Part shown: piece by piece, positions 11,681-29,171 of the stretch
How the letters are laid out: each line of letters begins with the position of its first letter
How positions within the stretch are numbered: position 1 is the stretch's first letter
From: Candidatus Electrothrix sp. GW3-4
GTDB taxonomy: Bacteria; Desulfobacterota; Desulfobulbia; Desulfobulbales; Desulfobulbaceae
Length of the DNA stretch: 32,000 bases
Assembly (NCBI RefSeq): GCF_037902255.1
Contig: NZ_CP147990.1
Location: forward strand, 180,001 to 212,000
Direction: 5' to 3'
The notes under the pieces: generated by a model
Seen by the model: only the letters and a program-made list of their open reading frames with translations
Databases searched by the model: none
Told to the model about the DNA's origin: nothing
Program-made: the position numbers and the translations under genes

Positions 11681-11833
11681 TTTGCTCACTGCCCAAGAAA
11701 TACCCCTTGCCTGCTCAGGAATGCATTTGATATCATAGCCTCTATTAACGACTTGAATCTTGCTTCCTGCCCCTCTCTACAAAGAGGGCTGGGGCTGTGT
11801 TTCCAGATTATATTTTTTCAGGAGTTCTGTTTT

Positions 11834-12859
11834 ATGCGTAGCCCAAATATCTCTGCTGTCATCCTTGCTGCCGGTAAAGGCACCCGTATGAAATCCGATC
11901 AGGCCAAGGTCCTGCATGAGCTTTTTTTTAAGCCCATGCTTCATCATGTGCTGGATGCGGTGACAGAAACGGATATAGGGGAGCTGGCAGTGATTGTCGG
12001 GCATCAACGGGAGCGGGTCCTGACCTCCTTGCAGGAGGCCCCGACTCCATACCCGTTCACGCCAGTGGTGCAGGAAGAGCAGTTAGGCACCGGGCATGCG
12101 GTGCTCTGTGCAGAAGCGGCCTGCGCTGCTGCTGATTTGGTGATGATCCTCTGTGGGGATACCCCGTTGATCCGCCCAGAGACCCTCCAGGCGATGATTG
12201 ATCGACATAAGGAAAGCAAAGCTGTGCTCACCCTGATGACCACGGTCCTGGATGAGCCTTTTGGTTATGGCCGAATCCTCACCGATGCAGAGGGTGGAGT
12301 TGTTGCCATTGTGGAGCAAAAAGATGCAAGTGCAGAGCAACGGGCTCTCCGGGAGGTGAATGCGGGCATCTATCTTGTTGATGCGAAGTTCCTTTTTTTT
12401 GCCTTGCAGCAGGTGGGCACGGAGAACAGTCAGGGTGAGGTCTATTTGACCGACATCGTCTCCATTGCAAGGCAGCAAGACCATCGGGTGGAGCGATTTA
12501 TCCATACCCCGGCCATTGATGTGCTGGGGGTGAATTCCCGGGTTGAGCTGGCCCAGGCCCATCACGAGCTGCAAATGCGCCACAACCGAGAGCTCATGCT
12601 CAGCGGGGTGACCCTGTACGGGCCGGAAACGATCCTTATTGCCCCGGATTGCCGGATCGGTCAGGATGCTGTTGTTCATGCTGGTGTGCAGATCACCGGT
12701 GCTGCACAAATCGGCAGAGGGGTACAGCTTGCTTCAGGAGTCGTCCTGCATAACTGTCAGGTCGGCGATAAGGCTGTGGTCGGTGCGAACAGTGTTTTGA
12801 AAAATTACACGGTGAAAGAGGGAGAGCAAATTCCCCCGTTGACCTCACGTCTTTCATAA
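11834..12859 (+). CDS. GlmU-like N-acetylglucosamine-1-phosphate uridylyltransferase with a truncated left-handed beta-helix (341 aa)
   Basis: The track ORF is 11753..12859. I prefer ATG 11834, which has AGGAG about 10 nt upstream. Motifs: AVILAAGKGTRMKSDQAKVLH, QLGTGHAV, ILCGDTPLI, NAGIYL. Only about 100 aa of hexapeptide repeats follow, and the gene ends before the GlmU acetyltransferase core. Confidence 0.75.
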   Translation: MRSPNISAVILAAGKGTRMKSDQAKVLHELFFKPMLHHVLDAVTETDIGELAVIVGHQRERVLTSLQEAPTPYPFTPVVQEEQLGTGHAVLCAEAACAAADLVMILCGDTPLIRPETLQAMIDRHKESKAVLTLMTTVLDEPFGYGRILTDAEGGVVAIVEQKDASAEQRALREVNAGIYLVDAKFLFFALQQVGTENSQGEVYLTDIVSIARQQDHRVERFIHTPAIDVLGVNSRVELAQAHHELQMRHNRELMLSGVTLYGPETILIAPDCRIGQDAVVHAGVQITGAAQIGRGVQLASGVVLHNCQVGDKAVVGANSVLKNYTVKEGEQIPPLTSRLS

Positions 12860-12946
12860 GAACTTCCATTCCGGCCCAGCGGGCCGGGACAACAAAACAT
12901 AAAAGGCGGGAAGCCTGGCGGGCTGCGCCTATCACTTTTATAAAAA
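12860..12946 (+). repeat. Copy A of a dispersed hairpin + ACAACAAA intergenic element
   Basis: It begins right after the TAA stop at 12857-12859. Sequence: TTCCGGCCC-AGC-GGGCCGGGA hairpin, then CAACAAAACAT, a second imperfect GC hairpin, then TTTTATAAAAAA. It aligns with copies at 23696, 23768-23872 (minus) and 28055. Confidence 0.7.
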
Positions 12947-13061
12947 ACAGAATGCCTCAAGGGAAGTTTTATAACCTGTCATTAAATGTTTACTTTGCTG
13001 GTGTAAGAGGTTATATCTTTCTCTTCTGAAAGATAAATTTTGTTATCCTGCCGATGAGCAA

Positions 13062-16065: not shown

Positions 16066-17268
16066 TTATTCCTGATCAGTTTGTGGGTGCGTTGTCAGGC
16101 GTAAGATCGTATAGCCGACCAGTCCTGAAACCAAGGAGCCAAGAATAATCCCAAGTCGCTCATCAAAGACCCGTTGCGTGCCGTTTTCGTGAAAGGCCAG
16201 GCCTCCGATAAAGAGGCTCATGGTAAATCCTATACCGCAGAGGATCGACACGCCATAGAAGATTTTCCAATTTATCCCGGTAGGAAGCTGGGCTATTTTT
16301 AATTTTATGGCAAGAAAGCAGAGGCCAAAGACACCGGCCTGTTTGCCAAAGAAGAGGCCAAGGGCAATGCCCAGCGGAACAGGGTGAAGGATTTGTTCTG
16401 CACCGATACCCTGCAGGTGCAGCCCGGAATTAGCAAAGGCAAAAAGAGGGAGGATGATATACGAAACCGTTGGATGTAGGTCATGTTCGAGCTTTTTCAG
16501 TGGGGAGATATCCGGTTTCTCATGGGAGTAGAGGGGAATGAACATGGCCAGAACAACACCCGCAACCACGGCATCCACCCCGGAATTCAAGGTGGCAAGC
16601 CAAAGAAAAAAACCGACCACTAAATACGGCAATTTTTTGGTTGCTCCGATATGGTTGAGACAGGCAAGTATTGCCGTGCAGCCAGCAGCTGCCGCCAAGG
16701 GCAGCACTGCTATATCTTTTGTATAGAAAAGGGCGATGATCAGGACCGCCCCCAGATCATCAAAGATTGCCAGAGAGGTCAGGAATATTTTTATGGAATA
16801 GGGTACCCTGGACCCGAGCAGGGTAAGAACGCCCAGGGCAAAGGCAATATCCGTGGCAGCCGGTATTGCCCAGCCATGTATTGCCAGAGGGTCTCCGTGG
16901 TTGAGGGAGACGTAGATAAGGGCCGGAAGCAGCATGCCGCCCAGCGCGCCGATAATAGGCAGCATGATATTACGCCTGTCTGATAACTCTCCCTCCATGA
17001 CCTCTCGTTTCAGTTCTAAGCCGACGAGGAAAAAGAAAATTGCCATCAACCCCTCATTGATCAAGTGGTGCAACGACAGGTTTATGCCGAGTTCATTCAC
17101 TCCGGGTATCCATGCCAGGGGATGGAGGTGAAGGAGCTTTTCGTAAAGATGCGCAACCCCTGAATTGGCGCAGATAACAGCTACTATCGCTGTCAGCATC
17201 AGCAAGATACCGCCGGAGGCCTCCAGATTAAAGAAGTTTGCAATGAATCTTGATGCCTTTTTTTTCAT
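16066..17268 (-). CDS. nhaA: Na+/H+ antiporter NhaA
   Basis: The track ORF is 16066..17424. I prefer ATG 17268 (MKKKASRFIANFFNLEASGGILLM), preceded by TAAGGAGAA. Conserved NhaA stretches: INEGLMAIFFFLVGLELKRE, WAIPAATDIAFALGVL, LAIFDDLGAVLIIALFY. Confidence 0.85.
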   Translation of the reverse strand: MKKKASRFIANFFNLEASGGILLMLTAIVAVICANSGVAHLYEKLLHLHPLAWIPGVNELGINLSLHHLINEGLMAIFFFLVGLELKREVMEGELSDRRNIMLPIIGALGGMLLPALIYVSLNHGDPLAIHGWAIPAATDIAFALGVLTLLGSRVPYSIKIFLTSLAIFDDLGAVLIIALFYTKDIAVLPLAAAAGCTAILACLNHIGATKKLPYLVVGFFLWLATLNSGVDAVVAGVVLAMFIPLYSHEKPDISPLKKLEHDLHPTVSYIILPLFAFANSGLHLQGIGAEQILHPVPLGIALGLFFGKQAGVFGLCFLAIKLKIAQLPTGINWKIFYGVSILCGIGFTMSLFIGGLAFHENGTQRVFDERLGIILGSLVSGLVGYTILRLTTHPQTDQE

Positions 17269-17433
17269 AATTCTCCTTAAAATATAGCCAGCTATGTCGG
17301 CAATGTTGTCTGAGTTTTTGGTATGTCTTGCGCTATATTTCTCCTGTTTTGGTTCCCTGTCAAGGAGAAACGAAAATAAATACATTTTTGTTAGGTTTTT
17401 CGAGAAGACCTGTACGTTCTGCACAAGAGAGAC

Positions 17434-18048
17434 ATGGGCTCCTGGGTTTCTTTACTCACCGAGAGAATACATACCTGCAACCCGGCTTTTGAAGCCGAAT
17501 TTCAGCACTGGCTGTGGCCGTCTGGCACCTGTTTTTTTGCTGAGCGGCTCTGGTGGGGCAAGCAAAAGCAACGGATTGCCCTGCATGAAGGTGTTGACCT
17601 GGCCTGCTTTATAGATCAGCAGGGGAAACAATGCACCGTTGCTCCGGGGCTGCTCATTCCAGTGATATTTCCGGGTCGGGTCGTGCAGTTGCACCGGGAT
17701 TTTCTCAATTGGTCAATCTTTATCCGCCATGATTCGTTCTGTCGGACCCGTGGGGAGAGGGCTGTCTTGCATACAGTGTATGGGCATGTGCAGCCCAAGG
17801 AGGGGCTTTTCATTGGTCAGCACGTCAGGGCAGGTACCCCGGTGTCCGTGCTGGAGGCCTATCCCCGCAGCACTGTGCCGCTCCATCTTCATTTTACCGT
17901 GGCCTGGATACCCAACGATTTTCCCCCGTCCCAGCTCAACTGGCAGACCTTGAACGAAAATAAACAGATTGTCCTGCTTGATCCCTTAGCAGACTGTGCG
18001 ATGGCAGGGGAGTACACCAGTACACCACCGTTCGGGTTTAGAAATTAA
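17434..18048 (+). CDS. M23/LytM-family peptidase-like protein with no evident signal peptide
   Basis: 204 aa. HxxxD motif (LHEGVDL) and HxH motif (LHLHFTVAW), with VYGHV between them. The N-terminus is not hydrophobic. The 3' end overlaps the convergent GGDEF gene by 11 nt. Confidence 0.65.
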   Translation: MGSWVSLLTERIHTCNPAFEAEFQHWLWPSGTCFFAERLWWGKQKQRIALHEGVDLACFIDQQGKQCTVAPGLLIPVIFPGRVVQLHRDFLNWSIFIRHDSFCRTRGERAVLHTVYGHVQPKEGLFIGQHVRAGTPVSVLEAYPRSTVPLHLHFTVAWIPNDFPPSQLNWQTLNENKQIVLLDPLADCAMAGEYTSTPPFGFRN

Positions 18049-19591
18049 TCTGAAACCCATCTTTCTTTTTTCCCAGATACATTTTTTGATCAGTCAGTTT
18101 AATAAGCTGCTCTGTCTCCATAGGCTCTGAGGAATGCACCTCGGTGATACCAATGCTCAGGGAAACCCCAGGTACTTCCTTACGGAAGAGGGTAATCAGT
18201 TGATCACAGATCTTTCTGGCGTTTGCGCTGTCACATCCCGGAAGAATGATGCAAAACTCGTCGCCGCCGTATCGGCAGGGGAAATCCGACTTCCGCATAC
18301 TGGCCCTGAGGGCATCGGCGACCTTACGGAGAATTTGATCGCCGATGACATGTCCCTGGCTGTCATTGATATGTTTAAAGTTATCCACATCAAAATAGAC
18401 AAAGGACAGAGTCTGGTTGTTCATGATAATATTGTTGAGTTCCTGATTGAGCAAGGAGAGCATTGCCCGCCGGTTGTACAGGCCGGTGAGCTGATCTGTC
18501 CTGGAGATCTCTTCCAGTTGGTTGGTATGCTGCTGGATGCTTTCTTCAAGCTCTCCGGCCAAGCGGATATCTCTACGGGCACGGAGGATGAGCAGGAAGG
18601 CTGTCGACGCTATGAGAAATGCGGCAAGGAGGAGGATGATATGACCCAGGCCCATGAGCCTGTTTGAGGATTGCTGGAGCATCTCTGTCCTGTTTTCCAC
18701 AATCAGGTTGAGTTCGCTGGTTACCTTGTTCTGGATCGGTTCAAGTGTATTGATATAGTTGTATATGGCCAGGTTCCATTGCGGGGAAGAACGCAGTTGT
18801 ATGGCCTTGTCTGTCTGATAGGTATACTGGAAAAAGAGTTTCACCAAGGTATTGGTCAGCTCGGTTTCTTCATAAGAAAGGCCTTGGGCGTTGGTGAGGC
18901 CTTGCAGGCTGTTCTTGGCGGTGGCAAGGTTTTTCCTGAAATCCTCTTCGTTCTCTTCTGAGCCGGTGAGGATAAACTGGAGGAGGCCGGTGCTGGAAAT
19001 AGAGAAGAAACCACGGATATCAGCTGCCTGTCTGAAGAGCGTTAGATGCACGTGGGATGGTCCATGCCCGGAAGAGAGCAAGTGCATGATCTGGGTGATG
19101 ACCGAGAATATTTTTCGTTCAATATCACGAATCGTCATCAGGTAGAGGTTAAGGGCCTGATCGTTTCCTTGGGTATGGGTCAAATCCTCGGTAATCCACT
19201 GTTCCGTCTGGAGATGTTGCAGGTCCAGCAGGAGAGAATTGTCCCTCCCTTCAGGACCTTTAAGTTGCATATGCAGCTGCCGGGCTGTGGGGTAGATAAC
19301 CGTAGCCCAGATTTTTTCCCGTTTTTGTTTATTTTGTTTATTTTTTTTTGGTCCGGTGAGCATCCACTCATCCAAAAGGAGCATGGAGTCATTGACTCCT
19401 TTGAGTAATTGGTTGCTGGTGGTAACAAGGGGGCCTATCTGGTTCAGATGTTCTCTGGACAGATAGCTTATGCCGACCAAGGCGGAAAGCCCGAGAAAAA
19501 TGGTAACAGTGAATTGGATGGAGATAAAGAGGTAGGTCCGCAGCAATTGCCTTTTAAAGGATTTTATGCTCGGTTTCTTTTTTGCACTCAT
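18038..19591 (-). CDS. Membrane-bound diguanylate cyclase (2 TM, large periplasmic region, C-terminal GGDEF)
   Basis: 517 aa. TM1 is YLFISIQFTVTIFLGLSALVGISYL and TM2 is GHIILLLAAFLIASTAFLLIL. The GGDEF domain is DQLTGLYNRR...FDVDNFKHINDSQGH..GD...CRYGGDEFCIIL. Its ATG overlaps the stop of the upstream gene (ATGA). Confidence 0.85.
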   Translation of the reverse strand: MSAKKKPSIKSFKRQLLRTYLFISIQFTVTIFLGLSALVGISYLSREHLNQIGPLVTTSNQLLKGVNDSMLLLDEWMLTGPKKNKQNKQKREKIWATVIYPTARQLHMQLKGPEGRDNSLLLDLQHLQTEQWITEDLTHTQGNDQALNLYLMTIRDIERKIFSVITQIMHLLSSGHGPSHVHLTLFRQAADIRGFFSISSTGLLQFILTGSEENEEDFRKNLATAKNSLQGLTNAQGLSYEETELTNTLVKLFFQYTYQTDKAIQLRSSPQWNLAIYNYINTLEPIQNKVTSELNLIVENRTEMLQQSSNRLMGLGHIILLLAAFLIASTAFLLILRARRDIRLAGELEESIQQHTNQLEEISRTDQLTGLYNRRAMLSLLNQELNNIIMNNQTLSFVYFDVDNFKHINDSQGHVIGDQILRKVADALRASMRKSDFPCRYGGDEFCIILPGCDSANARKICDQLITLFRKEVPGVSLSIGITEVHSSEPMETEQLIKLTDQKMYLGKKKDGFQINF

Positions 19592-20574
19592 GATTGTTGT
19601 TCGCTGAGCCAGTGGGGATTTTTTTGGACCTCTTTTAAGATGCTTCGGAGGTGATTGTGGAGATAGGTCAGGCGTTGGAGGACGTGAGAAGGGAATTTTA
19701 TCCCAGGATAGGTGGCATCGTGGCTGGGTTTTTCAGCAACTGCCTTGGAATGGAGGAATTTGAGCTCTGAAGTAATCAGGATCGCCAGGTCATAAATATC
19801 GCCAGGTTTGATGTCCGGAGTAGGGACGGTGGACAGATCCAGCATCTTGAGGCCAGAGGTCAGCATGATATCCCGGGTCGTCTGGTATGTTTCGATGAGC
19901 TCGGTAAAGACATCTTCAGCCGTTTTTCCGGGCTGGAGTGGCGGCTGGCTGTGCATCTGCATGCCGGGGAAGCGGTTATAGATATTTAATGCGCAGTAGA
20001 GAGCGGTAGAGATCTCCTGATAGACATCGCTGTAGGTGTAGGGTTGTTCCTGGAGCATCTGGTTGACCTGGCGGATGGTCAGCAGGAGGGATTGATAGAC
20101 ATCGGTAGGTACTCTTTTCTCTTCTATCTCTGGAAATTGGACATGAGTGGTGATATCATACTCCTCCTTGATTTCGTCGAGCTGGATAAGGACCACGGAA
20201 AGGACCGCCCAGACATCTGCCGGGCGAATATTCTGTTCCACTGGCGGAAGATTATGATCTAAGATGGATCGGGCCGTGAGGTTATGATGCAGCCTGCTGA
20301 TTTTGCCGTACAGATTGACGGCCTGAAAATAGACCTCTCTGGGTTCGGCGTTAGCCACCTGCAATAAGGTGTGGCTGACCTTTGTTACTCCCATGAGCTG
20401 GCGGATAGACTGCGTTTCTTTATTCACCAGCCGGGACAAAGCATAGACATGTTTGGGTTCAATATGTTTTGCTGCAGGCAGACAGAATGCATTCTCATGG
20501 TTGAGCCAGGAGGCAGCAGCTTCAAGGGGGAGGAGGGACAGGAGGACAAGGAGGAGAGCGGTATATCTGTTCAT
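19588..20574 (-). CDS. Secreted hypothetical protein built from about 8 helical repeats (P-x-D-V-Y-type motif)
   Basis: The track ORF is 19588..20613. I prefer ATG 20574 (MNRYTALLLVLLSLLPLEAAASW, a signal peptide). Repeats seen in the translation: PKHVYALSRL, PREVYFQAVNL, PADVWAVLSVV, PTDVYQSLLLT, YSDVYQEISTA, AEDVFTELIET, PGDIYDLAILI, PSHVLQRLTYL. I recognise no known family. Confidence 0.6.
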   Translation of the reverse strand: MNRYTALLLVLLSLLPLEAAASWLNHENAFCLPAAKHIEPKHVYALSRLVNKETQSIRQLMGVTKVSHTLLQVANAEPREVYFQAVNLYGKISRLHHNLTARSILDHNLPPVEQNIRPADVWAVLSVVLIQLDEIKEEYDITTHVQFPEIEEKRVPTDVYQSLLLTIRQVNQMLQEQPYTYSDVYQEISTALYCALNIYNRFPGMQMHSQPPLQPGKTAEDVFTELIETYQTTRDIMLTSGLKMLDLSTVPTPDIKPGDIYDLAILITSELKFLHSKAVAEKPSHDATYPGIKFPSHVLQRLTYLHNHLRSILKEVQKNPHWLSEQQS

Positions 20575-20712
20575 TATTTTTCCATGGGCCAGAATGAGCT
20601 GGATGAGTATCATTGTTTTTTAGCTGAATTTCCCCGGTTTGCAAATATTTTTTTTGGGAATATGGAGAACGAGTGGGGATAATAGCCCGCTGAATACTGA
20701 GGATATTGTTTC

Positions 20713-21609
20713 ATGCTGCGTGTCTTCAGACCTATTGAACAACAAGAGACAGACAGGAGACAGGACGTGAAAAACGAAATACGGGGAACCCAGGAGCAGA
20801 GTCTCTCAAGACGGCAAGTACTGAAGGGAACAAGTGCCTTGGCGGCTGGAGTGGCATTAACCTCTTTGGCTGGTTTGGTGAAACCGGCAGCTGCAACGGG
20901 CGGGAAAACAGAAAAATGGCCCTGGCCTTACCTCAAACTTGATCCGGCAGAGACCGCAGAGATTGCCTACAAAGAGTGGGATAGGGTTTTCTGTGGGGCA
21001 GCGGTCATCAATAGTGTGTTCAGTCAGCTTCGGGAAAAAATCGGCGAGCCCTATACTTCCTTTCCTTCTGATGCCTTTGTTTTTCTTGAGGGCGGTCAAG
21101 TTGGTTGGGGGACCATCTGCGGCTCTCTGGCCGGTGCGAGTATTGTCGCCAATGTGATTCTTGGTCCCCGTATCGACGATTCCATTCTTGGTCCCCGTAT
21201 CGACGATTCCATTGTTGGTCATCAGATTGCTGAAGATATTATGCAGTGGTACACAACAGCGGAGCTGCCTCTTTACCAACCCAAAGTCCCCAAGATAAAA
21301 ACGAAGCTTCCTGCCACGATCAGTCATTCTCCGCTCTGCCATCTCTCTGTTGGCAGATGGATGAAAACCGCGAACAAGTCACTTGGTAGCCCGGAGAGAA
21401 AAGATCGCTGTGCGCGGGTTGCTGCCAGTACCGCCTATAAACTGGTTGAGTTACTCAATCAGTGGAAGGCCGGAGAGTATGCGTCGGAAAGTGAATTCAG
21501 CTGTGGCAAGACATTCGGAATCCCTGGTCCGAAGAACTGTACCAATTGCCACAGGGAGAAGATTCCTGTTGCACCTAAGATGCCTACAAAAGCACAAGGT
21601 GGATTTTGA
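20713..21609 (+). CDS. Tat-signal C_GCAxxG_C_C-family redox protein with a C-terminal CxxCH motif (split-Soret cytochrome c-like)
   Basis: 298 aa. Twin-arginine signal SRRQVLKGTSALAAGVALTSLAG. Also CGAAVINSVF and WGTICGSLAGASIV (the C-GCAxxG-C-C pattern), and CTNCH near the C-terminus. Confidence 0.65.
   Translation: MLRVFRPIEQQETDRRQDVKNEIRGTQEQSLSRRQVLKGTSALAAGVALTSLAGLVKPAAATGGKTEKWPWPYLKLDPAETAEIAYKEWDRVFCGAAVINSVFSQLREKIGEPYTSFPSDAFVFLEGGQVGWGTICGSLAGASIVANVILGPRIDDSILGPRIDDSIVGHQIAEDIMQWYTTAELPLYQPKVPKIKTKLPATISHSPLCHLSVGRWMKTANKSLGSPERKDRCARVAASTAYKLVELLNQWKAGEYASESEFSCGKTFGIPGPKNCTNCHREKIPVAPKMPTKAQGGF
21157..21210 (+). repeat. Perfect 27-bp tandem duplication inside the C_GCAxxG gene
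   Basis: ATTCTTGGTCCCCGTATCGACGATTCC occurs at 21157-21183 and again, identical, at 21184-21210. A partial third copy ATTGTTGGTC follows. It is in frame: ILGPRIDDS ILGPRIDDS IVG. Confidence 0.95.
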
Positions 21610-21807
21610 GCGCTAGCAAAGAGATGAAGAAGAACAGCGAGTGAGATTTTATAAATTCTCAGAGGCTGCGTTAAAGGAAGGGTGCGCAAGGTCAGGATTT
21701 GGTACCCTCTCTGAAAAAATAATCTGATCGAACTCGTTGCGCCATCCTTTCTTCTATGGTATCAGGAGATAATCATGTGCAGCGATAAGGGCGATGAGGA
21801 TGATACG

Positions 21808-22059
21808 ACGTGCTTTTTAAAAGAGGAGGGTTGCTCCTTCAAAAAGGGGCGCTTGGTTTTCAAAGAGGACAGGTACTTTTTCAAAGAGGAGCTCTCCCTT
21901 TTCATAATGCAGAGCTCAGTTTTAAAAATGTAGTCCATCCTTTTTAAAAGGGAGAGGTGCATTCTCAAAAGGTGGTTGTCCATTTTCATAAGGCGCAGTC
22001 CCATTCTTTCATTGGAGCGCTACATAGGCAGAGAGGAGGGCATCATTCTGTCAGGGAAT
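21808..22059. repeat. About 12 degenerate tandem units of exactly 21 nt (T-run + CAAAGAGGA-type core)
   Basis: Units phase exactly every 21 nt from 21808, for example TGCTTTTTAAAAGAGGAGGGT, TGCTCCTTCAAAAAGGGGCGC, TTGGTTTTCAAAGAGGACAGG, TACTTTTTCAAAGAGGAGCTC. There are no indels across the array. The plus frame from ATG 21775 (AGGAG 6 nt upstream) gives heptads xxxFKEE, with one in-frame TAG at 21931-21933. Minus-strand ORF 21762..22004 gives heptads xxxxLLK. A hairpin AGACAGA/TCTGTCT at 22216-22234 follows. Confidence 0.8.
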
Positions 22060-22257
22060 GTATCCCACCTGTTCAAGGAGACGGGCCAGATCAAAGAGGC
22101 CCTGGAAAAGGTCGGACCAGGTGACCTGACTCATCAGCATAGCAACGACCTTGAAGTCTTGCCCGTGCTTCTTCCTCAGGCTCTGCTCTGAATAAAGTGC
22201 TCTTTCCCTTATTTCAGACAGAACACCTCTGTCTTGAGATCCTTACCCGGAGAAACC

Positions 22258-22857
22258 ATGCAACCTGGAAGCAAAACCATCCTCCTTGGCCTTATCCTTT
22301 TCATCCTCGGCGGCATCGCCTTCCCTGCGGCGATTCTCCTCCCCCTCTTGCTCGGTGATTCCATCGACAAACAGTTCAGCGTCCCCGGAACCCTCCAGGT
22401 TACCATCGAAGAACCGGGGCGGTATTACCTCTGGAACGAGTATCAAACGATCTTCAAGGGAAGGACCTATAATCGCCCCGAAGATCTTCCAGACGGCATG
22501 GAGATCTCCATCACTGATACGGCAACCGGTCGTCCCTTTGCCTTTATTACCTCCTCCTCCATGTCCATGCACGGCGGAAACGAGGAGAAGAGAAGCATCG
22601 GCTATATTAAGGTGAGCAAGCCGACAGAGATTCGGGTTGAGATCAGCGGGGACAACGAAGGGAGGATTTTCTCCTTTGCCCGGGCCACCTTCTTTGAGAC
22701 CCTCAAGCGGATTTTTGGCGGCATCGCCTTGGCCTTTTTTGCCGGTTCCTCAGGCATTGGTCTCGTCATCTGGGGCATTGTCCGGTCGGTGCGGGCCAAG
22801 GACAGGGAAGACCAGGATATTCCGCCTGCCCCGGACAGGCCGGATCAGGATCGCTGA
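22258..22857 (+). CDS. Hypothetical 2-TM membrane protein with an extracytoplasmic beta-rich middle domain
   Basis: The track ORF is 22234..22857. I prefer ATG 22258, with GGAGA 5 nt upstream. N-terminal TM is ILLGLILFILGGIAFPAAILLPLLL and C-terminal TM is IFGGIALAFFAGSSGIGLVIWGIV. It has an acidic Pro-rich tail. I recognise no family. Confidence 0.6.
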   Translation: MQPGSKTILLGLILFILGGIAFPAAILLPLLLGDSIDKQFSVPGTLQVTIEEPGRYYLWNEYQTIFKGRTYNRPEDLPDGMEISITDTATGRPFAFITSSSMSMHGGNEEKRSIGYIKVSKPTEIRVEISGDNEGRIFSFARATFFETLKRIFGGIALAFFAGSSGIGLVIWGIVRSVRAKDREDQDIPPAPDRPDQDR

Positions 22858-23095
22858 TGGTTTTCCCGTCAAGATGGACGAATCGGTGAGATATTTTTCA
22901 GGAGATGCGTCTCGAGCTCACCGTCGCTCCTTTAAATTTGCCAGCCGATAAAAAAAAAGGTATTACTTTAGATTTTCAGGGAGAATTCATCTTCTATTCA
23001 TTTTGTGTTGATAAAATAGAAGAAAAGAAGATGTGGCGATGGAAAGGTCGTCACTCGGTATCTTACTTCATTCTATTTTAAAGGAGGAATCCATT

Positions 23096-23695
23096 ATGAA
23101 CACTTGCACACAATCTTTCCGCCATTTTGCTTCAGAAAACCTGCTTGCAGGTACCTTGTTTGCTTTGACTGCTCTGCTCATCTCTCTGTTCTGTGCAGGC
23201 TCAGCTCTGGCCAGTGGTGATGAGAGGTATGAGCGCTCTAGAGAGGAAATTAAGATTTACGGCGTAATCGACAGTATGCCGAGCTCTGGTTTTACAGGAA
23301 AGTGGGTTGTTGGCGGTCGTGATGTTGAGGTTACGGACAGGACTCGGATTAAAGAAAAATACGGTCGGGCTGAAGTCGGAAGATCTGTAGAGGTAGAGGG
23401 CTATCGGGATGGTAACGTTCTTATTGCCTACGAGATTGAAGTGGAACGGAGCAGGGATGACCGTTCAGATCGACGGGGTGAGGAAAGCAAAATGTATGGT
23501 ACTGTTGAGTCCCTGCCTCAAAGTGGCCTTAATGGTGTCTGGCGGATCAATGGGCGAGATGTAACTGTTGATCGCAATACAAGGATTAAAGAGAAGCACG
23601 GCAGAGTCGCGGTTGGCGTTTATGTCGAGGTGGAAGGACGCTCCTCGGGCAACACGTTTATTGCCTCCGAGATTGAGACAAAAAATAACAGATAG
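23096..23695 (+). CDS. Secreted protein with two tandem DUF5666-like domains
   Basis: The track ORF is 23033..23695. I prefer ATG 23096, preceded by AAAGGAGGAA. Signal peptide LFALTALLISLFCAGSALASG. Internal duplication: IKIYGVIDSMPSSGFTGKWVVGGRDVEVTDRTRIKEKYGRAEVGRSVEVEGYRDGNVLIAYEIEV versus SKMYGTVESLPQSGLNGVWRINGRDVTVDRNTRIKEKHGRVAVGVYVEVEGRSSGNTFIASEIET. Confidence 0.7.
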   Translation: MNTCTQSFRHFASENLLAGTLFALTALLISLFCAGSALASGDERYERSREEIKIYGVIDSMPSSGFTGKWVVGGRDVEVTDRTRIKEKYGRAEVGRSVEVEGYRDGNVLIAYEIEVERSRDDRSDRRGEESKMYGTVESLPQSGLNGVWRINGRDVTVDRNTRIKEKHGRVAVGVYVEVEGRSSGNTFIASEIETKNNR

Positions 23696-23778
23696 CCTTT
23701 ATCCCGGTCCAGCGAGCCGGGATAACAAAAGATGGCGGATAGGAAAAATGGTCGGCTTTGCCGACCATTTTTATATAA
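23696..23778 (+). repeat. Copy B of the hairpin + AACAAAA element, ending in a bidirectional terminator
   Basis: It starts directly after the TAG stop at 23693-23695. TATCCCGGTCCAGCGAGCCGGGATAACAAAAGATGGCGG aligns with copy A: by my hand count, 16/19 identical 3' of the CCAGCG loop. Confidence 0.7.
23748..23772. terminator. Bidirectional Rho-independent terminator
   Basis: Perfect 9-bp stem ATGGTCGGC / GCCGACCAT with a TTT loop, flanked by AAAAA upstream and TTTTTAT downstream. It lies between the convergent DUF5666-like gene and, ignoring the IS, the histidine kinase gene. Confidence 0.8.
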
Positions 23779-23872
23779 CGTACCGGCCTTTTGATTCGTT
23801 GGATTCCTTGGAGTCGTCCGATCAACGTTCATGTTGTGTTGTCCCATCCCAGAGGGGGAGAATGGGAGTTTG
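23768..23872 (-). repeat. Copy D (minus orientation) of the ~100-nt repeat element
   Basis: The reverse complement reads AAACTCCCATTCTCCCCCTCTGGGATGGGACAACACAACATGAACGTTGATCGGACGACTCCAAGG...GGCCGGTACGTTATATAAAAA. It aligns along its length with copy C at 28055-28152 and over its first 35 nt with copy A (25/35 by hand count). Confidence 0.75.
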
Positions 23873-23902
23873 TACGAATGCAGGAAAGAGAATAACCCAT
23901 AC

Positions 23903-25664
23903 CTACAGCCCACATTCAGCATACCCTCTATCCATTTCCAGAATATAATTTTTCATATCTCCCACCCAACAGCTTCAGCAGACGCAAATGATGTTCATTT
24001 AAATTCAGGACCAGCTGTTGCATTCCGCCGACAAGCAGCAGGTGAATTCCTGAAAAAAACTGAAATACCCAACGAGCAGTAGGGTTAGGGGCAGGTTTTC
24101 CTTTCTGGTTGGGAAATGTTTCATTATTTATTTCGAGCGCTTGTCTGATGCGATATTCCAACGCGGCGTACACCAGGAGGCAAAGCGTCATAACCATCAT
24201 CAGGGCCATGATACGTTTTCGGGATTTTAAAAAAAGCGTTGAAGCCATAAACATAGGATCTTTGAGGAAACGAAAACCCCGTTCAACCTTTTGCTGATCT
24301 TTGTACACTTTCAAGAGTTCCTCGTCGGACAATTCTTCGCAGTCCAACTGATTCGTTGCAAGAATAAAACAGCTTTTTCGTTCCAACAATCGGGTTCTCT
24401 CCTGAAGCAGGGAGGCTGGGTTGCCTTCAATGCGGTAAACATAAAAGTCCGGTTTCTTGCCCTTGGCTGGCCGTCCTTTGCCCTTATGGCGAGGTAAAGC
24501 AACAACACGAGCGTCATGAATTGAGAGTATTTTCAGCTTTTTTTCAAAACGGGACAGTGCTTTCAATGCATCGGCCTCGCAGGCAAAATCCTGTTTGCAC
24601 AATTTATCGAATTGCTTGGATTCATTTGTGCTCAGCTTGAGGCATTTTTTGTTTACGGTCTTGCGTCCCCGTTGATATGCTTCAGGCGAATAGACAACCA
24701 ACCAGCGCTGCCTGACATCGCCATAAACTACCCCGAGACTGCGAGATGCTGCTTTTTCAGGATCCTGCATCAGATTTGAAGCTACTTCATGGATGATCTC
24801 CTGGGACAGATTCAATGTCTCCGGTACACGGGAAATCCACAATATCATGCTCAGTTCTTTTAATGTTTGCGCTGTATAGAGCGCACTATCCGCAACCAGA
24901 TATTCCAGGCTGAAATCGTTTTTCATCTGATCAATATGCGCTTGCACTGTTTCCCGAAAATCTGTTTTATCGCTACTGTTACCACTTAACGGCTTCATCA
25001 GAAGCGGGATGCCAGCCTGTCGTTCGCAAATGAGCTGCAACACGATCTGGTTCAGATCCGGACGATGATCACGGCTGTAGCCTTTTGTGATCCGAATAAC
25101 ACCTTCTTCCTCTTCTGATCCGTTGGCTGGATAGCGACCGTCGGTATGAAAACTCGTTGAATCCAAGTGACCAAAACGTGCCAGCAGCCCTAGACGACCA
25201 ATTGCCCTAGCTGCAAGCTGCGAATATAACTCTTCGGGATTATGCTCGTAAATCACTTCTAAGGCCCGGCCCAAAACAGTATCGTTCAGGTGCTGGGCCT
25301 CAATGCCTTCTCCGATGAGTCGATCTACCGGTTTATCCTGGAAAAAATGCGGGGTCAGATACAATGCCCGATTCGCAAAGCCCAACCCGTTAAGAACCAT
25401 TGCCTTAACTGCCTGACCAACTGAGACAACTCGCTTTTCTTTATCCTGATGAATCAGACTGTCAATCAGCTCCCCAAGTCCGAGTTCGTCATACATACCC
25501 GCGACTAGGCCCAAGTGATTGAGGAGTTTACTTGAGCATTCCTGTGGTAAAATCGTTGTGTTGTTTTCCATACCTGCTGCCTGGTTGATTTATTAAATGT
25601 CTTTTTGAGGCAGCAGGTTATAAAATATTTTTTTATGTGTCAACGTGCGGAATGTGGGCTACAG
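23903..25664 (-). mobile_element. IS1634-family (IS4-like) insertion sequence, about 1.76 kb
   Basis: Single transposase ORF. Imperfect terminal inverted repeats are CTACAGCCCACATTCAGCA (23903-23921) and the rc of 25646-25664, CTGTAGCCCACATTCCGCA (16/19 by hand count). I could find no convincing target-site duplication. Confidence 0.75.
23928..25571 (-). CDS. IS1634-family DDE transposase
   Basis: 547 aa. The N-terminus LNHLGLVAGMYDELGLGELIDSLI...VSVGQAVKAMVLNGLGF is a DUF4277-like module. HLDSTSFHTDGRY and LVADSALYT are DDE-type motifs, with YKDQQKVERGFRFLKD near the C-terminus. Confidence 0.85.
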   Translation of the reverse strand: MENNTTILPQECSSKLLNHLGLVAGMYDELGLGELIDSLIHQDKEKRVVSVGQAVKAMVLNGLGFANRALYLTPHFFQDKPVDRLIGEGIEAQHLNDTVLGRALEVIYEHNPEELYSQLAARAIGRLGLLARFGHLDSTSFHTDGRYPANGSEEEEGVIRITKGYSRDHRPDLNQIVLQLICERQAGIPLLMKPLSGNSSDKTDFRETVQAHIDQMKNDFSLEYLVADSALYTAQTLKELSMILWISRVPETLNLSQEIIHEVASNLMQDPEKAASRSLGVVYGDVRQRWLVVYSPEAYQRGRKTVNKKCLKLSTNESKQFDKLCKQDFACEADALKALSRFEKKLKILSIHDARVVALPRHKGKGRPAKGKKPDFYVYRIEGNPASLLQERTRLLERKSCFILATNQLDCEELSDEELLKVYKDQQKVERGFRFLKDPMFMASTLFLKSRKRIMALMMVMTLCLLVYAALEYRIRQALEINNETFPNQKGKPAPNPTARWVFQFFSGIHLLLVGGMQQLVLNLNEHHLRLLKLLGGRYEKLYSGNG

Positions 25665-25665
25665 C

Positions 25666-27162
25666 TTAACATTCCAGTATAATTGTTACTGCAAATCCCT
25701 TGGGCTCCCGGTTCCGGGCTGAAACCGTGCCCTTGCAGGCAGCAACACAGGTCTTGACAATGGCCATGCCCAGGCCAACTCCACCGGAATCCCGATCGCG
25801 GGAGGGCTCTGGCCGGAAGAAGGGATCAAAGAGGCGATCAAGGTATTCCTTCGCCACACCAGGCCCGGAATCCTTGACTATGAGAATGACCTGCCCGTCC
25901 TTTTCCTGGGCTGTCACCGTAATCGGTCCGGCCTCCCCAGCGTACTTAACCGCATTGCGCAGCAGATTAGCCAGAGCACGAGTGAGCAGGTCTGCCGAGG
26001 CAAGGGCGGAAATTCCTGGATCAGTCTGTACATCAATCTGCACCGTTGGAGTCGCCTCTCGACGCACCGCCGCCTCCACCACAGGCAGGAGGAGGATCTG
26101 CTCCAGCTCAATCGCGCCGGAGTTCATGTCTGCCCGGGAAAAGGCCAGCAGCTCCCGGATCAGTTTGGACATCTCTTCCACATCCTCCATCACATCCTGC
26201 ACCCGCTCTTGATTCCCGCCCTCCAGGCGCTGTTCCAGGACACCGAGCCCGAATTGAATGCGGGCTACCGGGGAACCCAGCTCGTGAGCCGCATCACCGA
26301 GGAAGCGTTTCTGTCCTTTGACAAACTCATCAAGCCGGGTAGCCATATGGTTGATGGTCGTTGCCAGTCGCCCGATCTCGTCGGCCCGGGGCTCATTGAT
26401 GGAGACGTTGAAATTGCCCTTGGCGATCTCCTCGGCTGCGCGGGTCATCCGGATGATCGGCTTGGTAATATGGCGGACCAGTGGAATCCAGAGCAGGACA
26501 GAAATCAACAGAACCGCAGCTGAAACAACCATCCAGGGCAGGGGGTCAAAGAAGAAACCATTGCCTGTGATGGAATCCGAGTAGGCCAACAGCAAGCCAA
26601 ACTCGGGAGGCTGCCGGGGATCGGAAAATAAGGGGAGTTTGGTGCCAAACCAGTAGCGGGTCGGTTCCTTGGTACGCATGAACAGGTGTGGTCTCTTACC
26701 GTGCCATTTACGAGGAAAATTATTGGGGCAGTTTTTTATCTCCTGGGAGCCGCATTTTTTGTTCAAATCCGCACTTTTTTGGGCAAAACGTTCCCGCCAC
26801 GAGCCAGGCCTTCTACGGCGTAACGCCTCTTCGGATCTGAGCATAATTTGTTTGGGGAGAGTCTTTAGGGTGGGGGAAAGGATAGTCCCGTTTCTCTGGA
26901 TAACGATAAAGTCCACCCCGTTAATTGAACTGTGACGGGCAAGGATATCAGGCCACTCTTCCGGCTGTGCTTGACTGAGGTCATGGGAGATCAGCATCCC
27001 TGCAACCCGTAATCGATCCGAGCCCTGCTGTCCGAAAAGTTCGTGCAGGCGAAACTGGGGTTGAAAGGCAAAAAAGAGCGTTAACACTGCAAGCACAAGC
27101 AGCATATTAAGGAAAAACCAAGACAGGATCTTGGTAAAGAGGGTGGAGGTTGGTTTGGTCAT
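25666..27162 (-). CDS. CpxA-like sensor histidine kinase (2 TM, periplasmic domain, HAMP, HisKA, HATPase_c)
   Basis: 498 aa. HAMP is ITKPIIRMTRAAEEIAKGNF, the H-box is FLGDAAHELGSPVA, the N-box is LLRNAVKYA, and the G-boxes are DSGPGV...GGVGLGMAIV. There is a 4-nt overlap (ATGA) with the upstream response regulator gene. Confidence 0.85.
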   Translation of the reverse strand: MTKPTSTLFTKILSWFFLNMLLVLAVLTLFFAFQPQFRLHELFGQQGSDRLRVAGMLISHDLSQAQPEEWPDILARHSSINGVDFIVIQRNGTILSPTLKTLPKQIMLRSEEALRRRRPGSWRERFAQKSADLNKKCGSQEIKNCPNNFPRKWHGKRPHLFMRTKEPTRYWFGTKLPLFSDPRQPPEFGLLLAYSDSITGNGFFFDPLPWMVVSAAVLLISVLLWIPLVRHITKPIIRMTRAAEEIAKGNFNVSINEPRADEIGRLATTINHMATRLDEFVKGQKRFLGDAAHELGSPVARIQFGLGVLEQRLEGGNQERVQDVMEDVEEMSKLIRELLAFSRADMNSGAIELEQILLLPVVEAAVRREATPTVQIDVQTDPGISALASADLLTRALANLLRNAVKYAGEAGPITVTAQEKDGQVILIVKDSGPGVAKEYLDRLFDPFFRPEPSRDRDSGGVGLGMAIVKTCVAACKGTVSARNREPKGFAVTIILEC

Positions 27163-27884
27163 TCTTTTGTATCCGGGAGTTGGAACATATATCCGGCTGA
27201 GCGAATCGTGCGTATAAAACGAGGAGTACGTGGGTTCTCCCCAAGTTTTTTTCGTAATGAGGAAATATGGACATCCACAGAGCGGTCAAAGACCTCGTAG
27301 TTTCTGCCAGCAACAGCATCAAGGAGCTGGTCACGGGTCAGAACCCGGCCAGCAGAGTTGGCCAGGGTGGTCAGAAGATCGTATTCCACCGGGGTCAGAG
27401 TCAACGTCTCCTCGCTGAGCCGAACGGTTCTGGAGCCCTGCTCAATTCGTAACTCCGCAAAGCAGAGTACATCTTTGTCTTTGGTCAGCTGAGAAGATGA
27501 CTTAGCCCTCTCTTCAACCCGTTGACAGCGGCGAGTTACAGCCCGCAGACGGGCAAGCAATTCCCGGGAGGAAAAGGTCTTGGGCAGATAATCATCCGCC
27601 CCCATCTCAAGTCCCACGATCCTGTCGGTCTCGTCGCCCCGGGCGCTGAGCATCAGCACCGGGATATCAGATTCTTGCCGGAGCTGCTTCAGTACCTCAA
27701 ACCCATCCATTTCCGGCATCATCACATCCAGGATAGCGGCATGATACTCCCCGGCCCTGCTCATCTCTAAGCCCTGGGCCCCGTTATGGGCTGCCTCGAC
27801 CTCATAGCCCATAGGCTCCAGGTAATCCGCAACCAGGCGGCAGAGTTTCCGGTCGTCATCAATCATAAGTATCTTCATGGTCAT
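27159..27884 (-). CDS. OmpR-family response regulator, CpxR-like
   Basis: 241 aa. KILMIDDD, AILDVMMPEMDG, LSARGDETDRIVGLEMGADDYLPKTFSSRELLARLRAV, and the winged helix FDRSVDVHISSLRKKL...IRTIRSAGYMF closely parallel E. coli CpxR motifs. Confidence 0.85.
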   Translation of the reverse strand: MTMKILMIDDDRKLCRLVADYLEPMGYEVEAAHNGAQGLEMSRAGEYHAAILDVMMPEMDGFEVLKQLRQESDIPVLMLSARGDETDRIVGLEMGADDYLPKTFSSRELLARLRAVTRRCQRVEERAKSSSQLTKDKDVLCFAELRIEQGSRTVRLSEETLTLTPVEYDLLTTLANSAGRVLTRDQLLDAVAGRNYEVFDRSVDVHISSLRKKLGENPRTPRFIRTIRSAGYMFQLPDTKE

Positions 27885-27942
27885 CTATCCTTGAGTCGTT
27901 CTCTTCTATTGTTGCTGTTCGCAGTGCTTCCGGGCAATCATT

Positions 27943-27988
27943 TTTACAAAAACTTTACAATTTACCTTCTGACGAAAAAAATCTTTAC
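27943..27988. promoter_or_regulatory. Cluster of four TTTAC (= GTAAA on the regulator's strand) direct repeats upstream of the response regulator gene
   Basis: TTTAC occurs at 27943, 27954, 27961 and 27984. On the minus strand this reads GTAAA-TT-GTAAA-N6-GTAAA. It sits 59-104 nt upstream of the RR start and resembles the E. coli CpxR box GTAAA-N5-GTAAA, with one extra spacer nt. Confidence 0.4.
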
Positions 27989-28054
27989 ATTCATTATCTG
28001 TTTTTCGCTCTTGTGTTGAGCTGGGGGCGAGTTTTTGCTATCTTGCTTCCAGAT

Positions 28055-28152
28055 AAACTCCCCTCCCGCCCCCCTGTGCCCCTGGGGCGGGACAACAAAG
28101 TATGAACGTTAATTGAATGACTCTAAGGGGTCACCCGGTACGTTCATATAAA
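28055..28152 (+). repeat. Copy C (plus orientation) of the ~100-nt repeat element, in the galE 5' region
   Basis: AAACTCCCC, then a perfect 9-bp hairpin TCCCGCCCC (28064-28072) / GGGGCGGGA (28084-28092), then CAACAAAGTATGAACGTTAATTGAATGACTCTAAGGGG...CCCGGTACGTTCATATAAA. TATGAACGT (28101-28109) can also pair with ACGTTCATA (28140-28148). Confidence 0.75.
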
Positions 28153-28172
28153 GTATTGTGAGATGAAGCCGT

Positions 28173-29171
28173 ATGATGCAGAAGAAAAAAGTCCTCGTCA
28201 CCGGCGGTGCCGGTTATATCGGCAGTCATACCTGTAAGCTCCTTGCCCGGCGAGGATACCTCCCCATTACCTACGATAATCTGGTCTACGGTCATACCTG
28301 GGCCGTGCAATGGGGTCCCTTTATTCAGGGAGATATTCGGGATACGGCGATGTTGGATAAGGTCTTTGCTGAGCATCAGCCAGAGGCCGTTATCCACTTT
28401 GCCGCCTTTGCCTATGTGGGCGAGTCTGTGCAGGAACCGGAAAAATATTACGGCAATAATGTTTCCGGAACCCTTGCCCTGCTTGAGGTGATGCGCCGAC
28501 ATGGCTGTAAGCAATTTATCTTTTCCAGCACCTGCGCAACCTATGGTAATCCCCAGGCCCTTCCCCTGACCGAGGACCATCCCCAGCAGCCTATCAATCC
28601 CTATGGCCGCAGCAAGTTGATGATTGAGCAGATCCTTGCCGATTACAGCACAGCCTATGGGCTCTCCTTTATTTCTCTGCGCTATTTTAATGCTGCTGGT
28701 GCGGATCTGGATGGCGAGATCGGCGAAGACCATGTGCCGGAAACCCATCTCATCCCCCTGACCATTCTAGCTGCCCTGGGAAAACGTTCTGCTCTCGAGG
28801 TCTTTGGCACAGATTACGAGACCCGGGACGGCACTGCGATCCGGGATTATATCCATGTTGCAGACCTGGCCGATGCCCATGTGCGGGCCCTGGAGTTGTT
28901 ACAGCGGGAAAAGGAATGTCAGGTTTTCAATCTTGGTACCGGGACCGGCACCTCGGTGCAGCGTATTATCCAGACGGTTGAGGAGCTTTCAGGGCACCAG
29001 GTACCAGTCAAGTACGGTCCGCGCCGCCCAGGCGATCCCCCAGCCCTGATTGCCTCGGCAGATAAGGCTACAGAAATCTTGGGCTGGCATCCTCAGTATT
29101 CTGATATTCAAACAATTATTCGCTCTGCCCTGGCCTGGCATGCTGCGCAGGAAGCAAAAAGGGGCTCCTGA
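28173..29171 (+). CDS. galE: UDP-glucose 4-epimerase GalE
   Basis: 332 aa. VLVTGGAGYIGSH, the catalytic YGRSK motif (PINPYGRSKLMIE), RYFNAAGA, and DGTAIRDYIHVADLADAH. Confidence 0.9.
   Translation: MMQKKKVLVTGGAGYIGSHTCKLLARRGYLPITYDNLVYGHTWAVQWGPFIQGDIRDTAMLDKVFAEHQPEAVIHFAAFAYVGESVQEPEKYYGNNVSGTLALLEVMRRHGCKQFIFSSTCATYGNPQALPLTEDHPQQPINPYGRSKLMIEQILADYSTAYGLSFISLRYFNAAGADLDGEIGEDHVPETHLIPLTILAALGKRSALEVFGTDYETRDGTAIRDYIHVADLADAHVRALELLQREKECQVFNLGTGTGTSVQRIIQTVEELSGHQVPVKYGPRRPGDPPALIASADKATEILGWHPQYSDIQTIIRSALAWHAAQEAKRGS

Follow-up and report, generated by a model that had tools for sequence, protein, structure and literature searches.

In a 32,000-nt stretch of the genome of Candidatus Electrothrix sp. 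GW3-4, a cable bacterium (the whole stretch is hereafter called the window), two homologous elements of about 100 nt, copies C and D, bracket an insertion sequence (IS) and the histidine kinase (HK) and response regulator (RR) genes of a Cpx-like two-component system. Sequence comparison indicates that C and D are probably diverged copies of a dispersed, lineage-restricted family of ~95-110-nt two-hairpin elements in Electrothrix, not the ends of a cassette. An initial annotation of the window had described the pair and offered four readings of it, namely a mobile cassette, an invertible cassette, a foldback duplication and a dispersed repeat family; our comparisons favour the last and speak against the other three. 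Elements of this kind are well known, and the family itself appears to be undescribed.

Copies C and D are homologous over their whole length (C 28055-28153 on the plus strand, D 23871-23769 on the minus strand), with 71 of 97 positions identical (73%) in a hand alignment and BLASTN E values of 1e-7 to 2.5e-7 against a database of ~150 kb, a similarity that by these statistics exceeds chance. The extent and orientation first reported for the two elements were confirmed, with the core of D starting at 23871, not 23872, and so were the matching blocks: AAACTCCC (8/8), GGGACAACA..ATGAACGTT (19/22), GACTC.AAGG, CCGGTACGTT (10/10) and ATATAAA. A GC-rich hairpin is present in both, its stem sequence differing between C and D, and both copies read outward from the segment that holds the IS, HK and RR, as had been noted. 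The alignment contains indels, the longest exact run common to C and D is 10 bp, and no identical core of 14 bp or more was found between them.

The two copies have relatives elsewhere. A pattern scan with GGGACAACANNNNATGAACGTT across 185,579 species genomes, GW3-4 not being among them, returned one true relative, 17 nt upstream of prfB in a Desulfobulbaceae/Electrothrix metagenome-assembled genome (MAG; locus L011) whose release factor 2 (RF2) is 87-91% identical to that of Electrothrix. Metagenomes, scanned besides, yielded one further relative, L041a, 22 nt upstream of cysK on an Electrothrix metagenome contig (L041). These four sequences (C, D, L011 and L041a) were the seeds of a hidden Markov model (HMM) and a covariance model (CM), R1; the R1 score of D is no independent test, because D is itself a seed. 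A MAFFT alignment of three seed sequences (A4) misaligned the first hairpin, P1, and was not used. Searches with nhmmer and R1 added copies B, E and F in GW3-4, two copies in E. marina (L057) and a second copy on L041 (Table 1); the copies at the glycosyltransferase locus of E. marina and of L041 are called marina-b and L041b. The R1 score of copy E is weak, yet its second hairpin and tail match an E. marina copy at ~28 of 32 positions, counted by eye. R1 gave zero matches at E<=1 in 426 kb of control DNA, which included 36 unrelated loci selected for the 18-mer they bear and 116 kb of sequence of other Electrothrix and Desulfobulbaceae.

The family exists in several genomes and is confined to certain lineages. 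We counted five copies in 53 kb of GW3-4 DNA (the window together with L054, a locus of the same genome), two in 15 kb of E. marina and two in the 2.5 kb of L041; R1 detected none in 42 kb of E. scaldis, nor in the loci taken from E. laxa, E. aarhusensis, Electrothrix sp. Rat3 and contig L062. The 73% identity of C and D compares with 63-74% between copies of different genomes. The whole window had no match in Rfam 15 at the gathering threshold, and permissive Rfam scans of C, D/E and F produced noise only, the best being a hairpin-driven hit to sraA at 27 bits against a 56-bit threshold. No description of repeats of this kind in cable bacteria was found in the literature searched.

All copies follow a common layout. 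An A/T-rich, ATATAA-like start, which often holds the stop codon of the upstream gene, leads into (A)AC.CCCAU and then into P1, a GC-rich hairpin with a C-rich 5' arm and a G-rich 3' arm, closed by U...GGGA. P1 is followed by a CA-rich linker, CAACAAAAC (ACAACAAAAC between P1 and P2), by the helix P2 (AUGAA...UUCAU) around a variable inner hairpin, and by AUAUAAA. The inner hairpin of subfamily 1 (C, D, L011 and L041a) is GACUC-YAAR-GRGUC. Subfamily 2 (B, E, F, marina-b and L041b) has a P1 near CCGGCCC-GGC-GGGCCGG and an inner hairpin, for example GGUCGGC-UUU-GCCGACC, with an A-tract at its flank and a U-tract after it. This U-tract is present after the second hairpin in E, marina-b and L041b and weaker in F (tail ACUUUCAU), and the second hairpin of subfamily 2 has, judged by its sequence, the shape of an intrinsic terminator. 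The hairpins of C and D are followed by ACCCGGUAC.. or AUAUAAA, with no adjacent U-tract.

Copy C consists of P1 UCCCGCCCC...GGGGCGGGA, the linker CAACAAAG, P2 UAUGAACGU/ACGUUCAUA and the inner hairpin P3, GACUC-UAAG-GGGUC; its predicted RNA fold has -41 kcal/mol (z -2.95). In copy D, P2 is weakened by a 13-nt insertion and a 1-nt deletion. The P1 of copy B is CCGGCCC-AGC-GGGCCGG, and that of copy E is CCCGGUC-CAGCGA-GCCGGG, followed by AUAACAAAAG and the hairpin AAAAAUGGUCGGC-UUU-GCCGACCAUUUUU (23744-23772), similar in appearance to an intrinsic terminator. The stem-loop and T-run seen just past D are this second hairpin of E, a plus-strand copy that overlaps the 3' end of D; we considered them as D's own terminator and rejected this, since they belong to E.

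Base pairing is maintained across the family. With eight copies aligned by fitting to the model, 90.4% of cells pair, and sliding the partners lowers this to 56% at most. Five pairs have changed on both sides, and the covariation score was reached by 0 of 500 shuffles. Compensatory changes in P2 are exemplified by AUGAACGU/ACGUUCAU in C, AUGAAAAU/AUUUUCAU in L041b and AUAAAAG/CUUUUAU in B. The single-stranded GGGACAACAAAAC is strongly conserved. The element ends (ACTCCCAT... and ...GTTCATAT) show no inverted repeats, and the two ATATAA-like end motifs of one copy resemble each other no more than those of different copies do (5.5 and 5.3 matches of 10, respectively; permutation p 0.34). These flanks are a family consensus and not copy-specific, and were rejected as a target-site duplication.

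Three further interpretations of the element were examined and set aside. A small open reading frame at a conserved ATG (MNV...) ends after four codons in C and lies in inconsistent frames in other copies, the indel lengths are not divisible by three, and third codon positions show no concentration of substitutions. A promoter using the 3' TATAAA as a -10 box would have no properly spaced -35, and its start would remove the Shine-Dalgarno sequence of L041. A switch in which 5' UUUCAU pairs with the 5' arm of P2 can be drawn in subfamily-2 copies and is not kept in C or L011.

The copies sit at gene ends and in leaders. B, E and the cysK-site copies start 0-2 nt past a stop codon, and L011 ~40 nt past one. 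Copy B starts at the stop codon of a GlmU-like gene (11753-12859), ~115 nt upstream of a hybrid kinase gene (13062-16034); E starts directly past the TAG stop of the DUF5666 gene and is convergent with D; and D starts ~32 nt past the HK stop codon, with the IS subtracted, no gene coming after it. At their other ends, C, L011 and L041a stop 17-22 nt upstream of a start codon, beside the ribosome-binding site (20 nt upstream of the galE ATG for C). Copies are oriented like their downstream gene.

Orthologous sites differ in whether they carry the element. Upstream of cysK there is none in GW3-4, P1 only in E. marina and E. scaldis (L056) and a full element in L041; the prfB leader holds a full element in L011 and no family element in L059 and L061; and between a response-regulator gene and a glycosyltransferase gene, three genomes have the full element and E. 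scaldis has a single different hairpin. Modules of the element can occur separately.

Copies C and D had been proposed as terminal inverted repeats of a cassette, and synteny in related genomes had been named beforehand as a possible refutation. We compared orthologous loci of E. scaldis (L003), E. laxa (L005), E. aarhusensis (L006), Electrothrix sp. Rat3 (L063) and a European Nucleotide Archive (ENA) contig (L062). Four of these loci (E. scaldis, E. aarhusensis, Rat3 and L062) keep the order radical-SAM / cpYpsA / galE / RR / HK, and in E. laxa only RR-HK is present, without galE; C and D are absent from all five loci by BLASTN and by the covariance model. Five other Electrothrix genomes thus carry the two-component system without flanking copies, and the claim did not survive the comparison. 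In GW3-4 the HK gene is intact, with a C-terminal length as in its orthologues, and its protein is 100% identical to that of E. sp. GW3-4 and 78-83% identical to those of other Electrothrix; RR is 87-89% identical to its orthologues. The DNA past HK is a variable, species-specific island, which in GW3-4 holds the IS, D/E, the DUF5666 gene and two more genes, and in other species ParE/Phd toxin-antitoxin genes and different cargo. The block bracketed by C and D is the conserved part of the locus, which is the opposite of what a cassette would lead one to expect. On the far side of the island (window 16066-20613) the genes are collinear with those of E. scaldis, which means that no inversion has taken place.

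The position of C at galE can be read from the same comparison. Rat3 matches GW3-4 through ...CTTCCAGATAA and then diverges, which sets the left boundary of C; the element begins directly after the shared CCAGATAA, and on its right side GTGAGAT is common to L062. In place of C the other species have a different ~100-nt hairpin-containing leader that keeps only a CGTTCAT motif. The block TTGAGA-N17-TATCTT (TTGAGC at 28016-28044, Table 1) upstream of C scores below the consensus threshold of the promoter scanner, and its conservation suggests that it is the galE promoter. The predicted transcription start lies ~4 nt upstream of copy C, and the conserved block supports the earlier description of C as part of the galE 5' leader.

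Gene orientation accounts for the geometry. C and D are inverted and read outward because galE and RR-HK are divergent and each has a copy in sense, so the inversion of C relative to D reflects the genes and not a mobile or invertible unit. D follows the RR-HK operon and lies tail-to-tail with E, which follows the convergent DUF5666 gene; on this explanation, an IS1634-family element inserted later between the HK stop codon and D. The family would have spread by duplication or insertion into A/T-rich sites at stop codons or gene ends. What the elements do is a more tentative matter: they may, though we hold this with distinctly less confidence than their membership of a family, be transcribed hairpin modules of the REP/BIME or BOX type that take part in termination or in the 3'-end formation, processing or stability of mRNA. 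The second hairpin of subfamily 2 would then terminate transcription, or P1 would protect and process the 3' end of the upstream cistron and the second hairpin would do so for the 5' end of the downstream cistron. We regard as rather unlikely, if worth stating, a more specific version in which the element would be a functional intercistronic module: P1 would cap the upstream 3' end, the second hairpin would do the same for the downstream message or insulate it, cleavage or protein binding would take place at the invariant GGGACAACAAAAC linker, some loci would draw a neighbour's ribosome-binding site from the element, and spread would be of the HUH/RAYT single-strand type into A/T-rich stop-codon sequence.

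Several points weigh against dispersed RNA-level modules as the explanation of C and D. A terminator role is not evident for C and D themselves, because the second hairpin of subfamily 1 has no U-tract. The pair counts given above come from an alignment fitted to the model and so favour the structure, and a wobble count of 7 G.U against 5 C.A is uninformative as to strand or as to RNA versus DNA. At the response-regulator/glycosyltransferase locus the element abuts the response-regulator start codon on the opposite strand, where it may be transcribed antisense as part of the response-regulator leader. Any copy number for GW3-4 as a whole is an extrapolation from the five copies in 53 kb.

Of the alternatives, the one that fares best is a cis-regulatory leader RNA for galE, prfB and cysK, either riboswitch-like or a site for a global RNA-binding protein, with D as a decayed or orphan copy. 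The three subfamily-1 copies placed beside ribosome-binding sites, the conserved structure with its compensatory changes and the conservation of the single-stranded linker would all suit such a role. We nevertheless consider it improbable: the downstream genes have no common pathway, D and E lie purely past stop codons with no gene following, B is at least 115 nt from the next gene, the element is dispensable at the orthologous cysK and prfB sites, P1 is found alone, and no Rfam family matches even at permissive thresholds.

A local foldback, in which rearrangement, possibly helped by the IS, would have made D an inverted duplication of the galE leader or the reverse, would account for the inverted arrangement of C and D at a distance of only 4.2 kb, and an IS with no recognisable target-site duplication does adjoin D. 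The identity of C and D, however, is no higher than that of C and L041a (74%) or D and L041a (71%), which come from different genomes and unrelated genes, and a value within the between-genome range argues against local duplication. In addition, the 5' extension of D, TTCTCTTTCCTG, is closest to the L011 prfB copy, and the genes flanking the variable island on either side keep the order they have in E. scaldis, with no inversion visible. We judge this origin very unlikely. The chances are equally slim that D and the hairpin plus T-run at 23744-23772 make up a separate small RNA gene, a paralogue of the galE leader. On its own strand D does have a strong stem-loop and U-run behind it, with no open reading frame beyond, but what would serve as the terminator is copy E's second hairpin, which lies on the opposite strand. 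Nothing promoter-like was found upstream of D, its short distance from the HK stop codon matches the way other copies sit behind stop codons, and an insertion and a deletion have damaged the P2 of D.

Least probable by far is a 4.4-kb cassette, mobile or invertible, that carries the two-component system and has C and D as its imperfect terminal inverted repeats, as their inverted, outward-reading positions around HK, RR and the IS had suggested: besides the syntenic relatives that lack both copies, C is located within the galE leader, past a conserved promoter block, solitary family copies stand at unrelated loci in GW3-4 and other genomes, the supposed ends are not near-identical (a 13-nt indel adding to the low identity and short exact runs), the outer flanks of 23768 (..ccgaccattt) and 28152 (agtattgtga..) share no direct repeat or target-site duplication, the bracketed block is not present or absent as a unit among the genomes compared, and no invertase or integrase lies inside, the sole mobility gene being an IS1634-family DDE transposase with inverted repeats of its own.

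Among known systems, the nearest parallels to the family of C and D are the REP/BIME repeats of Enterobacteria and Pseudomonas, which are likewise dispersed imperfect palindromes in transcribed intergenic DNA, often a few nt from stop codons, occur singly or in tail-to-tail pairs, like E/D here, and have a lineage-dependent copy number. In those bacteria they stabilise upstream mRNA or terminate or attenuate transcription. The Electrothrix elements resemble REP in that pairing of the palindrome is kept despite sequence change and in that they occupy transcribed intergenic sites near stop codons. They differ in being 95-110 nt long instead of 20-40 nt, with two hairpins and a conserved CA-rich linker; in lacking the GTAG-type 5' tetranucleotide of REP, their 5' motif being AC.CCCAU; and in having P1 stems that vary widely between subfamilies. 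BOX (boxA-boxB-boxC of Streptococcus pneumoniae) and ERIC/IRU are also modular intergenic repeats of ~100 nt or more that occur in partial combinations (here P1 alone or with P2/P3), and are predicted to fold stably and to be co-transcribed with neighbouring genes; there is, however, no sequence similarity, they belong to another phylum, and the number and order of modules are different.

Other comparisons are looser. Correia elements (NEMIS) of Neisseria and other miniature inverted-repeat transposable elements (MITEs) are likewise short, non-coding, placed near genes or in leaders and variable between strains, and such repeats can be a source of promoters, terminators or processing sites. 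A MITE is bounded by terminal inverted repeats and a target-site duplication, whereas the Electrothrix family has neither terminal inverted repeats nor a copy-specific target-site duplication. Intrinsic terminators resemble the second hairpin of E, F, marina-b and L041b (GC-rich stem, U-tract); by contrast, the inner hairpin of C and D is weak and lacks a U-tract, and P1 runs into ACAACAAAAC, not into U residues. To our knowledge, terminators are normally not sequence-conserved between unrelated genes. Composite transposons and the Hin/Gin/Fim invertible segments share with the GW3-4 locus the presence of inverted homologous sequences around a gene block, but near-identical ends, a recombinase gene, a target duplication and presence/absence of the block are all missing here.

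For GW3-4, these comparisons mean that the Cpx-like two-component system is part of the core, syntenic DNA and is not a mobile or phase-variable cassette. The family is abundant in some Electrothrix lineages and missing or relic in others. Repeat families of this sort break assemblies and confuse the annotation of uncultured organisms, mark indel hot spots in the leaders and 3' untranslated regions of housekeeping genes (galE, prfB, cysK), and may set transcript boundaries in organisms still without genetics. Model R1 offers a direct means of mapping copies in complete genomes.

Table 1. Family copies and neighbouring features (window coordinates unless a locus is named; CM, covariance model)
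Feature	Coordinates	Strand	Evidence or remark
Copy B, subfamily 2	12856..12950	+	CM R1 52.5 bits, E 2e-9; nhmmer E 4e-5
DUF5666 gene	23033..23695	+	Pfam PF18914; stop codon abuts copy E
Copy E, subfamily 2	23690..23783	+	CM R1 17 bits, E 0.39; predicted fold -39.7 kcal/mol, z -4.7
Copy D, subfamily 1	23766..23875	-	CM R1 85.6 bits, E 1e-16 (model seed)
IS1634-family insertion sequence	23903..25664	-	NCBIfam NF033559 342 bits; Pfam DUF4277 + DDE_Tnp_1
HK, HAMP sensor histidine kinase, CpxA-like	25666..27162	-	Pfam; best NCBIfam match CpxA, below curated cut-off
RR, OmpR-family response regulator (CpxR/OmpR-like)	27159..27884	-	Pfam Response_reg + Trans_reg_C; NCBIfam
Promoter-like block TTGAGC-N17-TATCTT	28016..28044	+	conserved in all five species with galE there
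Copy C, subfamily 1	28051..28156	+	CM R1 100.1 bits, E 6e-20
galE, UDP-glucose 4-epimerase	28173..29171	+	TIGR01179 461 bits; Pfam Epimerase
Copy F, subfamily 2	L054 11649-11739 (GW3-4 genome)		CM R1 44 bits
Orthologues of copy F	E. marina (L057); L041		CM R1 40 bits (E. marina), 37 bits (L041)
P1-only copy	upstream of E. marina cysK		CM R1 24 bits

The IS lies 1-2 nt past the HK stop codon and 31 nt before D. Its transposase open reading frame spans 23928-25571 on the minus strand, its terminal inverted repeats CTACAGCCCACATTC and CTGTAGCCCACATTC match at 13 of 15 positions, and inspection found no target-site duplication. Up to the IS, the orientation is unchanged in two short-read assemblies of this strain, which break inside the element, so the IS is multi-copy in the genome. 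An IS-mediated inversion that joined HK to D was considered and rejected, the flanking genes being collinear with E. scaldis.

The island past HK is bounded by the HK gene and by conserved GGDEF and Na+/H+ antiporter genes. In GW3-4 (20713-23695) it encodes a TAT-signal C_GCAxxG protein, a 207-aa unknown protein and the DUF5666 protein; in E. scaldis (L003 11541-17480) and E. aarhusensis (L006 11798-18951) it contains ParE/Phd pairs, STAND NTPases and an MFS (major facilitator superfamily) transporter. In E. aarhusensis (L006 11520-11790) and Rat3 (L063 11510-11600), two to three tandem units of another hairpin repeat family (CCCAGCGTTAAAACGCTGGGCTATTGGCGGGGCTGTCCCTCCGGGACGC...) come after the HK stop codon, at the position that copy D occupies in GW3-4.

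The other loci that carry family copies have features of their own. Upstream of cysK in E. scaldis (L056 9930-9975), the place of P1 is taken by a homopolymer hairpin of ~11 C, 8 T and 10 G, an odd variant that is likely a trouble spot of sequencing or slippage. Downstream of the L011 copy, prfB contains the +1 frameshift site CTT TGA C in its classical form (L011 238-330), and an open frame running from position 31 of L011 through the element into prfB was judged coincidental. The response-regulator gene on the opposite strand has its start codon 10 nt from the start of copy F (L054 11640-11660; L057 5962-5985; L041 862-840 minus); the complement of the 5' end of F, GGGAUGGGUG, occupies the expected Shine-Dalgarno position of that gene, where E. 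scaldis, which has no full element, has a plain AGGAG. Downstream of copy F, four Electrothrix genomes have in common a highly conserved non-coding block of ~230 nt (for example ACTGTAAAGGAAGCGTATTGCGAAGTCAATAAGAAGAAAA; L054 11745-11990, L057 6070-6300, L041 750-520 minus, L056 11680-11920). It separates the response-regulator/HisKA gene from a glycosyltransferase operon, has no Rfam match and could be an RNA of unknown type or a regulatory region.

The gap between RR and galE contains four TTTAC motifs (27943-27988), whose conservation extends to E. scaldis, E. aarhusensis, L062 and Rat3; the first two, at a spacing of 11 nt, read GTAAA-N6-GTAAA on the RR strand. They resemble CpxR boxes, GTAAA-N5-GTAAA, and from their sequence are likely to be an autoregulation site of the Cpx-like system. 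E. scaldis has a CpxP/Spy-like LTXXQ gene between RR and galE (L003 8650-9096) that is missing in GW3-4, E. aarhusensis, L062 and Rat3, and in GW3-4 the interval 27990-28015, from the TTTAC boxes to the galE promoter block, has the appearance of a clean deletion. As a consequence of this deletion, the Cpx-box promoter may now read towards galE through copy C.

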